DNA of 62,356 bases, filler included, from Sanchytrium tribonematis (Eukaryota), in the NCBI GenBank assembly GCA_018985235.1. It is 4 parts of 4 records of this genome, joined end to end, with 100 filler letters (N's around TTAATTAATTAA, not from the genome) between each part and the next. Parts side by side here need not be neighbours in the genome. Positions count along the whole stretch, not along the records: positions 1 to 15,570 come from JADGIG010000147.1; 3 more parts are not named here. One strand, written 5' to 3'. The translations under genes were made by a program, and so were the position numbers. The number at the start of each line of letters is the position of its first letter. The first letter of the stretch is position 1. The notes under the pieces are model-generated. The model did not search any database and was not told where the DNA came from. It saw nothing but the letters and a program-made list of their open reading frames with translations. Shown piece after piece: positions 12,862 to 15,570 of the stretch.

Positions 12862-14922
12862 TTATTGTTTTAAAACAGCAAGATAATCTTTCACTTGTCT
12901 ATAGGCTAATGTAAGATCGTGCTGTGGAGCATAATATCTACGCACAATGTCTGGATTACAATCAGGTCCCCCAAAATAACTCAATAAATTAGTAACTCCA
13001 AAAATTTTGCCATAATTGTTTTCTAGACACACCACTGGCTTGTCCATCAACATGGCCATGACAGAGGCATGTAATCTATCCGTCAATACTACTTTATATC
13101 CACAAAACAATCGATTTGCTATTTGCAATCTAAAGAGTGGAAGTCTAGCTTCGTTTTCAGGCAACCCATTATAAAACGGATTATTAACTTGTTCGAGTTC
13201 TGGGTATTGTTCCCAGTCTATAATGTCATAAGACACGTCTTTAAAGAGAGTTTTAAACAATTTCATGTACTCATCTCCTAAAATACTTTCCGGGTCAGTT
13301 CTCTTTAAAAATAAAACATCTTTAGTAGGTTTACATAATGGCTCTTGATGCCCAATCATAAATGCACTGTCTGGCACTAGATATCGGAATTCATTATCAG
13401 AAAAAACATCATCCAATATATCTTTAGATCTGGTACTTCTGACCATTAAATGAAGGTCATTGTGAGCGGCATATATATGCTGATCGTTTTCTATAAAAGT
13501 GTCATTAGCATAAAAGACGCTTTGAGGCATAAACACGATTTTGTTGTCTGGGTATTTTTTTACAACTGAATTTCTCAACTCTGGGGACCATCTGTATAAA
13601 TCACCCCAATTACCACCTCCATGCATCAAGATGACTTCATTATTAATTTCCTTATTCTTCAGTACTTTGCGACATTTGCTGGTTGTGCAACTTTTTAAGT
13701 TTATACCCAATTTGGCCATCGCGATTTCTTCTCCAAGCCAAATAAAAGAGTCTCCCAAATTTTCGTGATCAGGAGCATCCATTAAAAAAGCAGAGGTATG
13801 TTTTGGCAAAACTTTTTTAAAAGTATCGAGATATGCTTCTTGGATCTTATTGAGGCATTGAAATCGTCTCAAAATCCGCGGAGCATCAATCATTAAAGGT
13901 TTTAATTCGTCTGACTCAAGTGGAATCGTAATCGAAGTTCGATATTCATCTTGAGAACCTTGCAAAACAAACACAAATAAAAGTAGAGATAAAGATATGT
14001 TTCTCAATATTTTTTGCGCGTTTCTGGTATCCCCACCGAATGTATTTTTGCGTTTGTTTTTAGTTGCACCATATCCCATTACACCCAAATAAGCAATTGT
14101 AATTCCTAATATATTATAAAAATTCACAGAAGCATGAAAATAAATCCAGGCATAGACTATTGACACGATTCTTTTAAAAACATTAGCAATCGCATGGGAA
14201 ACTGGATGCAATTCGTTCAGAATCATAAAGCTACTTAAATTATATAAAAAGTAAAAGATACTCCCATAGCACAAATACGAAATATTCGACCAATTTGGAA
14301 CATTAAATTGGTAAATTAGGGAATATAGTATATATAATATAATGGAAAAGAATCCGCTTAATCCTGAACTTAGCACGAAAGATTGCATCGGATCCATTTT
14401 CATTTTCTTAAAAACAACTGATCTACAGCAAGTCACAAATACGCTACTTAATGAAATAATCAATGCATCAAAGTTGAAAGAGGTATCAGTAATTGTCGCT
14501 AGAGCAACTCCAATGGGAATGGGTATTAAAGTCAACCATTGTTTTGTCGCAAGTCGCTGATTTAATATAATAATACTCAAGAATCCACTTACAAATGGTT
14601 CAAAAGCTTTAATGGTATAGTTAAATTGAATGCTACTGTATTTGAATGCATAAAGTGTAAATAAGGCATTGCATAAATGGAAAATGCTTAAATTATAAAA
14701 GGGTCTCAAGAAACTCATTTTCGAATTGGAAGTGTGTAATTTCTCATCAATCAAATCATATTTTGGTAAATAAAATGGAAATAAAATCATGCTCACAGCT
14801 AAACTTCCAAAACATGCCAGAAAAATATTATTTTCTTTTAAAAACAGCTTCAATTGGATGTTGCTGAGTGACGTACACATGTACCATAGAAAGATCCACG
14901 CAATTAGCTTCCAAGTTTGCAT
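12862..14922 (-). CDS. Fusion of a TPT/nucleotide-sugar-transporter-family carrier (putative PEP transporter) and a polysaccharide pyruvyltransferase (Pvg1-like)
   Basis: One uninterrupted ORF from ATG 14922. N-half has about 10 TM segments with KAFEPF, LIPIPIGVALAT, PVSHAIANVFKRIVSI. C-half has ENLGDSFIWLGE, HGGGNWGDLY, PQS, PDSAF, TDRLH, NNYGKI. Confidence 0.88.
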   Translation of the reverse strand: MQTWKLIAWIFLWYMCTSLSNIQLKLFLKENNIFLACFGSLAVSMILFPFYLPKYDLIDEKLHTSNSKMSFLRPFYNLSIFHLCNALFTLYAFKYSSIQFNYTIKAFEPFVSGFLSIIILNQRLATKQWLTLIPIPIGVALATITDTSFNFDALIISLSSVFVTCCRSVVFKKMKMDPMQSFVLSSGLSGFFSIILYILYSLIYQFNVPNWSNISYLCYGSIFYFLYNLSSFMILNELHPVSHAIANVFKRIVSIVYAWIYFHASVNFYNILGITIAYLGVMGYGATKNKRKNTFGGDTRNAQKILRNISLSLLLFVFVLQGSQDEYRTSITIPLESDELKPLMIDAPRILRRFQCLNKIQEAYLDTFKKVLPKHTSAFLMDAPDHENLGDSFIWLGEEIAMAKLGINLKSCTTSKCRKVLKNKEINNEVILMHGGGNWGDLYRWSPELRNSVVKKYPDNKIVFMPQSVFYANDTFIENDQHIYAAHNDLHLMVRSTRSKDILDDVFSDNEFRYLVPDSAFMIGHQEPLCKPTKDVLFLKRTDPESILGDEYMKLFKTLFKDVSYDIIDWEQYPELEQVNNPFYNGLPENEARLPLFRLQIANRLFCGYKVVLTDRLHASVMAMLMDKPVVCLENNYGKIFGVTNLLSYFGGPDCNPDIVRRYYAPQHDLTLAYRQVKDYLAVLKQ

Positions 14923-15102
14923 TATAAAAATTCTAGAGGGGTTGCATTTTATTAAAAGGATTTTGGCCAATCACGGGAGATAAATCCTACCAATTAAAGT
15001 CATTAAATATACGTTGACGGATATTACGTTTAGATTACGTGTTCTTACGCCATTGACAGAGTCTAGTCTATATTTAACACTCATAAGATGCAAAAATTTA
15101 AT

Positions 15103-15570
15103 TTATTGCTTGACAAATTTCAAAAATTCAACCACTTTGGGTATTATATCTTGAGCTCGGTTTGGTGGGATAAATGCCCTCCTGAGAACATCGGTACTGC
15201 AATTGTCTTTATCCCATTTTTGCAATAAGTCCAATACACCTGATATCTTTCCATATGAATTAGCCAAACTAATCACTGGCTTATCCATTAAAATAGACAA
15301 GACAGTTGCGTGTAATCTGTCTGTCAAGACCATCCGGCCTTTGCATATAATTCTGTTTGCCATATTCAGACGATATAAAGGTAATTGGTGCAACTTCTTT
15401 GGTCTTTCTGTGAAATATGGATTCTCCACTTCAACTTGTTCGAGCGCATCATACCAGTCGACAACGTCATAAGTAATACCATGTTTTTTAAAGTATTGTT
15501 CAATAACTGAAATGCTACCAGTTACACTCTCTGTATCTTTTCTTTTCAATATCAAAACATCAAATGTTGG
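15103..15570 (-). CDS. Second pyruvyltransferase, C-terminal part only (cut by contig end)
   Basis: PTFDVLILKRKD, YRLNMANRIIC, LTDRLHA, NSYGKI align with the adjacent fusion protein. Confidence 0.85.
   Translation of the reverse strand, partial: PTFDVLILKRKDTESVTGSISVIEQYFKKHGITYDVVDWYDALEQVEVENPYFTERPKKLHQLPLYRLNMANRIICKGRMVLTDRLHATVLSILMDKPVISLANSYGKISGVLDLLQKWDKDNCSTDVLRRAFIPPNRAQDIIPKVVEFLKFVKQ

Follow-up and report, generated by a model that had tools for sequence, protein, structure and literature searches.

Fission yeast provides the only worked-out eukaryotic pathway of glycan pyruvylation in the portions of the literature covered here. Its pyruvyltransferase, Pvg1p, is a known dimer that transfers pyruvate from PEP to beta-galactose, and the associated Pet1p and Pet2p are PEP transporters of the TPT family. 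Pvg1p is a Golgi type II enzyme that needs luminal PEP, the supply of which depends on Pet1p/Pet2p, and its active-site residues have been predicted, with the D106A variant being almost inactive (PMC4872226). On the carrier side, the substrate-site residues of the plastid phosphate translocator GsTPT2 are known: His185 binds the carboxyl of 3-phosphoglycerate, and Phe at position 263 is modelled to disfavour PEP (bioRxiv 10.1101/169169).

The window, a 62,356-nucleotide stretch of Sanchytrium tribonematis DNA (filler included) joined from parts of four genome records, carries domains predicted for both functions in a single gene. This gene, P0001 (12862..14922, minus strand), runs from ATG to stop without internal stops and needs no intron, encoding 686 residues. 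Pfam places the TPT domain (PF03151) at aa 6–284 (E 1.5e-36; 126.7 bits against a cut-off of 30) and the PS_pyruv_trans domain (PF04230) at aa 388–636, covering profile positions 1–279 of 280 (E 9.7e-20; 72 bits against 25.3). The basic motif KNKRKN occupies aa 288–293, and the hydrophobic segment named in the preliminary description falls at aa 309–322; the reading frame, the Pfam matches and these positions thus agree with its account of one continuous ORF joining a TPT carrier, a basic loop, an extra transmembrane helix and a full pyruvyltransferase. A stop-free linker of 60 codons has a chance probability of about 0.01 at 33% GC, and three orthologues of 682–696 aa carry the same fusion at 53–56% identity over 100% of their length. 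A Logan contig from one sequencing run spans 12410–15195 with zero differences, an agreement that is not independent because that run may be the window's own source. An internal start that would yield a separate type II enzyme can be dismissed, because M283, the sole methionine before the anchor, is missing in P0003 and P0004.

The N-terminal half (aa 3–287; 14062..14916, minus strand) is a carrier of the TPT/phosphate-translocator type, with ten helices placed within these residues by the AlphaFold model. It aligns to GsTPT2 (5Y78) with E 1.8e-15, is matched to it by Foldseek with E 7.2e-10, and shares with the plastid phosphate translocators (GsTPT2, plant PPT) the ten-helix DMT fold, the phosphate tetrad and the gate lysines. 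Specifically, K105, Y227, K250 and R251 correspond to GsTPT2 K204, Y339, K362 and R363, leaving the phosphate-binding tetrad intact, while K25 and K172 match the gate-capping K128 and K271; all six residues are retained in P0001 and its three orthologues. In the set of 29 fused carriers, the K204 equivalent is present in all 27 that cover the site, that of Y339 in 27, that of K362 in all 29 and that of R363 in 28. Unlike the plastid translocators, P0001 replaces His185 by A86 and Phe263 by T164, has no transit peptide (helix 1 begins at residue 3) and adds a C-terminal enzyme; the host, judging from its fungal neighbours, appears to lack a plastid. The His185 equivalent is absent from all 25 fused carriers covering the site and also from P0171, a plant protein whose N-terminus is longer by about 90 residues. 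The Phe263 site is mixed, with Phe in 8 of the 29, the small Thr164 rather than Asn in P0001, and the PEP-translocator-type Asn in P0171.

Comparison of the family profile with solved structures gives E 5.7e-56 for 5Y78, 6.5e-13 for SLC35B1, 3.6e-4 for the CMP-sialic acid transporter and 3.1e-3 for the GDP-mannose transporter. The P0001 family is therefore closer to 5Y78 than to the solved nucleotide-sugar transporters (SLC35A1/CST, Vrg4 and SLC35B1; E 6.5e-13 to 3.9e-3). The carrier scores 100.3 bits against TIGR00817, far below the cut-off of 317.9, and in sequence terms it likely works like a pPT without being a pPT member. When the carrier is considered by itself, its neighbours in Atlas features fail to separate carrier types, because nucleotide-sugar and other DMT clusters are among them at 0.96–0.98.

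Between the two halves lie three short elements, all on the minus strand. By charge count and pLDDT, a basic loop predicted to be cytosolic follows helix 10 (aa 288–304; 14011..14061), with 7 K/R against 1 D/E in aa 286–308 and pLDDT below 50 at residues 291–297. The eleventh membrane helix (aa 305–323; 13954..14010), a predicted type II-like anchor for the enzyme, has a Kyte–Doolittle value of 1.66 and forms helix 300–327 in the model. Its hydrophobic core is about 12–14 residues long, and short cores of this kind are usual for Golgi enzyme anchors. The helix is followed by a short, acidic and poorly ordered stem (aa 324–340; 13903..13953), with 5 D/E against 2 K/R in aa 324–345 and pLDDT below 50 at 326–344. 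Exactly one hydrophobic segment exceeds the threshold in 26 of 30 fusion linkers; the other four fall below it, three at 1.40–1.49 and one at 0.33. The AlphaFold model (mean pLDDT 83.3) orders the chain as ten helices, loop, eleventh helix, stem and catalytic domain. Because both termini of the carrier fold share one side and a single helix follows the basic loop, the enzyme is predicted to be luminal; this 10+1 arrangement would place the enzyme across the membrane from the loop, as the preliminary description had proposed for the extra helix.

The C-terminal half (aa 341–686; 12865..13902, minus strand) is a Pvg1-like pyruvyltransferase domain. Its sequence matches Pvg1 (5AX7) with E 1.7e-25, and 5AX7 is also the first-ranked Foldseek hit (E 3.1e-13, target TM-score 0.74), which assigns the GT-B-like Pvg1 fold. 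In a residue alignment with an offset of 53, which fits D106, H168, R217 and R337 of Pvg1, the predicted active-site residues D106, R217 and R337 correspond to D391, R495 and R616 of P0001, and all 19 aligned fusions conserve the equivalents of these three; those of R217 and R337 are the two predicted PEP-binding arginines. P0001 resembles Pvg1p in fold, in these three residues and in the placement of the predicted anchor N-terminal to the catalytic domain. In contrast to the Pvg1p and Pet1p/Pet2p system, it holds carrier and enzyme in one polypeptide, is only about 25% identical to Pvg1 and has S446 in place of the acceptor-side H168. The galactose pathway is reportedly missing in sanchytrids (PMC8371127), so galactose is a doubtful acceptor and may not be the one used. 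Bacterial EpsO/EpsI-like, WbbZ and CsaB pyruvyltransferases share PF04230 with P0001; the family profile matches WbbZ (6X1L) with E 1.3e-11, and no CsaB (TIGR03609) match was found for P0001 at E 0.001.

A second transferase, P0002 (15103..15570, minus strand), lies 180 bp upstream on the same strand. The preliminary description regarded it as a tandem second transferase, and its PF04230 match is real (E 1.6e-7, profile positions 208–280 only); however, only the C-terminal 155 residues of this paralogue are present, and its architecture is unreadable in the window because the contig join cuts the gene beyond them. The join itself (15571..15670) is artificial, consisting of 44 N, a 12-base spacer and 44 N, and recurs identically at 31201–31300 and 46792–46891. 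No transferase sequence was found past the join at 15571–15670, and the DNA there is likely not a continuation of the upstream gene. A Logan contig extends 1633 bases past 15570, and a 1926-base contig is not among the eight longest pieces listed for 15671–31200. P0002 is 42% identical to P0001 and 47% to P0006 and falls in the same 100/99 clade as P0001 in the transferase tree; by these sequence relationships it shares a lineage-specific expansion with P0001. A divergent membrane domain is found in its nearest relatives. Within this clade, the paralogues P0006–P0009 and P0011 retain the enzyme behind a multi-helix N-terminus that gives no TPT match. Profile–profile comparison of that domain with the carrier gives a probability below 1%, with scores of 11.7–19.4 against shuffled maxima of 15.9–17.4, and AlphaFold models aa 1–274 of P0011 with pLDDT below 50. 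Because the membrane domain of these close paralogues has no detectable TPT similarity, the enzyme can likely work without a phosphate-type carrier of its own.

The design is not unique to this locus, and P0001 is one more intact member of it. Both Pfam domains occur in at least 27 proteins including P0001 (at least 26 others in databases), and these counts are lower bounds because word-seeded searches (9, 9 and 6 matches) missed most of the fusions found by HMMER. The holders comprise Amoeboradix (56% identical), other fungi including chytrids, amoebozoans, a choanoflagellate and molluscs, with database examples in Amoeboradix (EP00835 P005213), Spizellomyces (SPPG_09475), Haliotis (XP_067658289) and Elysia (GFS26846). 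They share domain order and linker helix with P0001, differ solely in sequence (22–57% identity), and are annotated as hypothetical or by a single domain. Some come from transcript assemblies: the Ceratiomyxa, P0022, Physarum and Amoeba proteus proteins carry Trinity or transcript names pointing to single-mRNA fusions, so that in relatives both halves share one transcript, as the preliminary description required. That description had counted an architecture both widespread and already characterised against its own reading; widespread it is, which weakens the reading, but no description of a TPT–pyruvyltransferase fusion was found in the titles and abstract openings of the top-listed papers of full-text searches, among which subscription journals are mostly missing. 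The fusion is accordingly real and widespread, a variant of the Pvg1/Pet pathway of fission yeast that seems not to have been described before. A metagenome scan yielded 30 loci with pyruvyltransferase matches of 23–51% identity, with no TPT ORF in the retrieved DNA and no close relative.

Recent horizontal transfer, raised earlier as a possible origin, is not supported, because the GC3 of the fusion gene (0.31) lies within the range of ten other ORFs (0.28–0.34) and the carrier tree, which has a single outgroup-like row, sorts by eukaryotic group. The sole non-fused match in the Spizellomyces carrier search (one of six) is the plant protein P0171. In neither transferase tree do the fused transferase domains form a single group; one tree omits P0030, P0166 and P0168–P0170, and the other uses 42 of 164 rows. 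Starred branches of the 42-row tree force four changes, in trees whose "non-fusion" rows may include truncated fusions. A topology that sets 11 bacterial-looking rows apart was not rejected by the AU test (p 0.069), for a set chosen post hoc and with the taxonomy of its rows unverified. In Amoeba proteus, P0166 combines a related carrier (25% identity, E 4e-16) with a PF04230 domain that has no BLAST similarity to that of P0001.

P0001 is probably a Golgi or ER protein in which the carrier swaps PEP for phosphate and the lumen-facing enzyme pyruvylates a glycan, a reading drawn from sequence and predicted structure. The ten-helix carrier would import cytosolic PEP against luminal phosphate, as suggested by the intact tetrad and by the donor of its partner enzyme, meeting the same need for luminal PEP as in Pvg1p. 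On the luminal side, the enzyme would modify a glycan with pyruvate ketals. Pyruvate transfer from PEP releases phosphate, and this phosphate would serve as the carrier's counter-substrate, closing the cycle. Coupling would likely reside in co-expression and co-location rather than in a tunnel between carrier and enzyme, because the enzyme is attached through a disordered stem.

Several other explanations bear on this assignment. The window is joined from several contigs, which could suggest misassembly, faulty gene calling or contamination; the P0001 ORF nevertheless lies inside one contig, its GC3 is in line with that of neighbouring ORFs, and full-length orthologues and transcript-derived fusions in relatives contradict such an origin, making it scarcely credible. 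An unlikely, though the most serious, competitor is a carrier that moves another phosphorylated solute, exporting the freed phosphate or importing a sugar phosphate or nucleotide sugar for building the acceptor chain, with PEP arriving through a separate transporter. PF03151 spans many nucleotide-sugar carriers, and this breadth, the mixed Phe263 site, the TIGR00817 score under cut-off and the nucleotide-sugar clusters among the Atlas neighbours are all compatible with such a solute. Against it stand the almost invariant phosphate tetrad, the distance of at least 40 orders of magnitude by which solved nucleotide-sugar transporters fall below 5Y78 (among hits that contain neither SLC35E/C nor the Pet proteins), and the joining of two unrelated pyruvyltransferase types to this carrier type.

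Should the carrier half instead be mainly an anchor or sorting scaffold, dispensable or decaying, the enzyme would act as a plain type II Pvg1, much as the N-termini of P0006–P0009 and P0011, which lack a TPT match, might suggest. This is quite improbable for P0001, which with its three orthologues keeps the whole phosphate tetrad and the two gate lysines; moreover, its identity to Amoeboradix is 66% in the carrier half (280 columns) against 54–57% in the enzyme half. Topology cannot distinguish the Golgi lumen from the cell exterior, Pvg1 identity is low and the acceptor-side histidine is replaced, all of which leave room for a plasma-membrane protein that exports PEP and pyruvylates a wall polymer outside, or for transfer of a group other than pyruvate. 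The invariance of the two predicted PEP-binding arginines and the short, Golgi-like anchor core make either version highly improbable, as does the Golgi residence of the type II enzyme Pvg1 (PMC4872226).

The PEP/phosphate exchange proposed for P0001 may extend to a broader, more tentative reading, possible though short of probable, in which the fusions make up an ancient family of pyruvylation proteins, each working as a single chain, in fungi, amoebozoans, choanoflagellates and animals. A PEP/phosphate antiporter would feed a tethered transferase and recycle its phosphate, the carrier would have captured different transferase domains repeatedly, and carrier-eroded paralogues would rely on an intact copy. 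Mollusc members would then provide the enzymes, so far missing, that make the pyruvylated glycolipids of the sea hare.

The gain from the P0001 locus itself is small, namely an intact, intronless and easily cloned member, and a fused carrier–transferase offers a one-gene reagent for glyco-engineering. Sea hare, sponges and seaweeds are reported to contain pyruvylated glycans, for which the relevant portions of the literature name no enzyme (PMC6801904; PMC6994554). The sequence survey of the 2019 review, as its accessible part describes it, took in proteins of 250–600 aa only, a limit by which fusions of 650–1000 aa would have been dropped (PMC6801904). The fusions of molluscs, amoebozoans, a choanoflagellate and zoosporic fungi are direct candidates for pyruvylation enzymes, and they predict pyruvylated glycans in groups for which the consulted portions of these sources report none (PMC6801904; PMC6994554).

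The fusion is encoded by a single minus-strand ORF of 686 aa (12862..14922), in which both Pfam matches exceed their cut-offs: the TPT carrier (PF03151) at aa 6–284 (E 1.5e-36) and the PS_pyruv_trans enzyme (PF04230) at aa 388–636 (E 9.7e-20). These matches confirm the carrier and transferase that the preliminary description had placed in one reading frame, and its basic linker (aa 288–293) and extra hydrophobic segment (aa 305–323, Kyte–Doolittle 1.66) are likewise present. The interval 12410–15195 is covered by one Logan contig of sequencing run X1 with zero differences, a result that indicates consistency only, X1 possibly being the source of the window itself. 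The window, which comprises at least four concatenated contigs with identical artificial joins, has about 35% GC and is dense in genes, including eukaryotic ones such as ALG11. The closest named homologue of the fusion is from Amoeboradix gromovi, with 56% identity over the full length; this gene family by itself suggests a sanchytrid-like fungus of early-branching position.

The enzyme half aligns to Schizosaccharomyces pombe Pvg1 (5AX7; E 1.7e-25), which is also its rank 1 Foldseek match. In Pvg1, D106, R217 and R337 are candidate catalytic residues according to a substrate model; D106A leaves almost no activity, and mutants of the two arginines could not be expressed (PMC4872226). These positions correspond to D391, R495 and R616 of the fusion (alignment offset 53) and are unchanged in 19 of 19 aligned fusions. 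At the position of Pvg1 H168, where exchange for Ala or Cys made the site accessible to LacNAc (PMC4872226), the fusion has Ser446, a weak hint that the acceptor may differ from that of Pvg1. Additionally, the odds of galactose being the acceptor are lowered, because a genome study reports, at KEGG level, that the galactose pathway is absent from both sanchytrids studied (PMC8371127).

The carrier half aligns to the red-algal translocator GsTPT2 (5Y78; E 1.8e-15). According to the structural report on GsTPT2, phosphate is bound by K204, Y339, K362 and R363 and the 3-PGA carboxyl by H185, F263 disfavours PEP, and both termini lie on the same side (bioRxiv 10.1101/169169). The phosphate-binding tetrad is represented in the fusion by K105, Y227, K250 and R251, and among 29 fused carriers these residues are conserved in 27/27, 27/29, 29/29 and 28/29, respectively. 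Ala86 occupies the H185 position, where His is kept in none of 25 fused carriers, while Thr164 occupies the F263 position, which is mixed in the 29 (Phe 8, Thr 7, Leu 5, Ser 4, other 5). The family profile matches 5Y78 at E 5.7e-56, as against 6.5e-13 or worse for solved nucleotide-sugar carriers, and the carrier half scores far below the plastid-family cut-off. Because of the tetrad, the preference for 5Y78 and this low plastid-family score, the carrier is predicted to work like a phosphate translocator but is not a plastid pPT. From the pocket and the partner enzyme, we infer PEP as its substrate.

AlphaFold modelling from a 19-row alignment (mean pLDDT 83.3, pTM 0.54) places ten helices up to aa 287, then a loose loop, helix 11 at aa 300–327 and a disordered stem that leads to the catalytic domain. 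Charged residues number 7 K/R and 1 D/E in the loop ahead of helix 11, and 2 K/R and 5 D/E in the stretch behind it. Exactly one hydrophobic segment is found in 26 of 30 fusion linkers; three others score 1.40–1.49 and one has none. Golgi SLC35 carriers have cytosolic termini; with the same orientation in the fusion, the enzyme would lie on the lumen side. Since the modelled stem is loose, the enzyme would be tethered to the carrier, with channelling disfavoured.

An HMMER search of 1.84 billion representatives returned 59 matches at E ≤1e-30, and both Pfam domains were found in 16 of 34 hand-picked longer homologues and 7 of 10 further ones. With four proteins from the first homology search added, the proposed domain-architecture search yields at least 27 proteins with both domains, the S. 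tribonematis fusion among them, plus three truncated ones. Named sources, which we take to be fungi, amoebozoans, a choanoflagellate and molluscs, include Amoeboradix, Spizellomyces (two), Phlyctochytrium and Quaeritorhiza; Ceratiomyxa, Physarum and Amoeba proteus; Stephanoeca; and Haliotis and Elysia (two). Four of these records come from transcript assemblies, so that relatives make one mRNA. In a 60-member ESM Atlas cluster, PF04230 occurs in 97% and PF03151 in 93%, Mollusca being the commonest phylum. The Amoeba proteus protein P0166 combines a related TPT carrier, tetrad intact, with a PF04230 domain of a different class that has no BLAST similarity to that of the fusion; by its sequence, it is a second pairing of predicted carrier and pyruvyltransferase functions. 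Other homologues join the pyruvyltransferase to GT25 (P0024), a weak Fringe-like match (P0037) or GT2 (P0087). In P0158 a methyltransferase precedes the TPT fusion, probably through a merged gene model, because S. punctatus annotates the two separately.

Three clades appear in the carrier tree: one that includes amoebozoans (99/97), one that includes molluscs (100/99) and a looser one with all named fungi (88/88). Read without a proper outgroup, this tree fits vertical descent of the fused carriers. The enzyme tree places amoebozoan and mollusc fusions (99/98) apart from fungal and choanoflagellate ones; a single eukaryote-like enzyme group was not rejected by the AU test (p 0.069, set chosen after seeing the tree). 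No sign of recent horizontal transfer of the fusion into the S. tribonematis genome was found, and GC3 is 0.31 in both halves, as against 0.28–0.34 across ten other ORFs.

The second transferase described as lying directly upstream (15103..15570, minus strand) does lie 180 bp ahead of the fusion start, but just its last 155 aa are present. This fragment keeps the C-terminal motifs, including the Pvg1 R337 equivalent, shares 42% identity with the fusion and 47% with the paralogue P0006, and falls in one 100/99 clade with the fusion orthologues and four paralogues of 605–622 aa. The N-terminal region of these four contains several hydrophobic segments, possibly the remains of a carrier, and Pfam gives no TPT match. 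A Logan contig runs 1633 bases beyond 15570, leaving room for a paralogue-like gene; it is not among the longest 8 of 279 pieces matching 15671–31200. For the fusion P0005 and the paralogue P0011 alike, the longest contig has 31576 bases, which hints at, but does not prove, linkage of the two in a relative. Our best guess is that the upstream gene arose by tandem duplication and carries a divergent membrane domain. Within it, 15166–15307 exists in two versions in run X1, one with 5 differences (depth 27 versus 48), representing either an allele or another, nearly identical copy.

Several other genes were observed in the window. GH114 glycoside hydrolase (3148–3966, plus) and ALG11 mannosyltransferase (4416–5750, minus) genes share the contig of the fusion, with no evidence for a common pathway. 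Two tandem, similar-looking surface proteins at 5886–7634 and 7747–9976 (both plus) each combine a Ser/Thr-rich stalk with a hydrophobic segment at the C-terminus, and the second also has PAN domains and a tail seemingly in another frame (9464–9976); both are possible substrates for glycan modification. Paralogues at 10008–12395 (minus) and 32930–34954 (plus), of 670–800 aa and 41% identity over 657 aa, match no Pfam family over cut-off and are possibly secreted; the PDB search gave weak SPACA9 matches only and did not support a resemblance to the helical domain of a pore-forming toxin. The ORF at 58187–60673 (minus), with an MLKL-like domain at its N-terminus (PF22215, E 1e-8) and the first half of a kinase, overlaps one at 60666–61802 (minus) with the second kinase half and Sel1 repeats; the two are likely a single MLKL-kinase-Sel1 gene interrupted by an intron or a frameshift, with a possible role in fungal immunity or cell death. 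An apparently intact LINE-type ORF with endonuclease, reverse transcriptase and RNase H lies at 46922–51871 (plus), and the contig at 15671–31200 is rich in repeats, with an RT fragment at 24372–24833.

In the Pvg1/Pet pathway, carrier and enzyme are separate proteins (PMC4872226), whereas the S. tribonematis fusion holds both in one. Pyruvylated glycans are known from Aplysia, sponges, algae and fission yeast, no animal enzyme being named in the relevant passages of two reviews (PMC6801904, PMC6994554); the words 'fused' and 'fusion' are absent from PMC6801904, whose sequence survey was restricted to 250–600 aa. Among the titles and abstract openings listed by literature searches, none concerned a TPT–pyruvyltransferase fusion. 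The one-gene pyruvylation module of the preliminary description stands as to its fused architecture, its overall interpretation being supported in part. Collectively, the TPT–pyruvyltransferase fusion, whose function is predicted, is real, intact, widespread and apparently undescribed.
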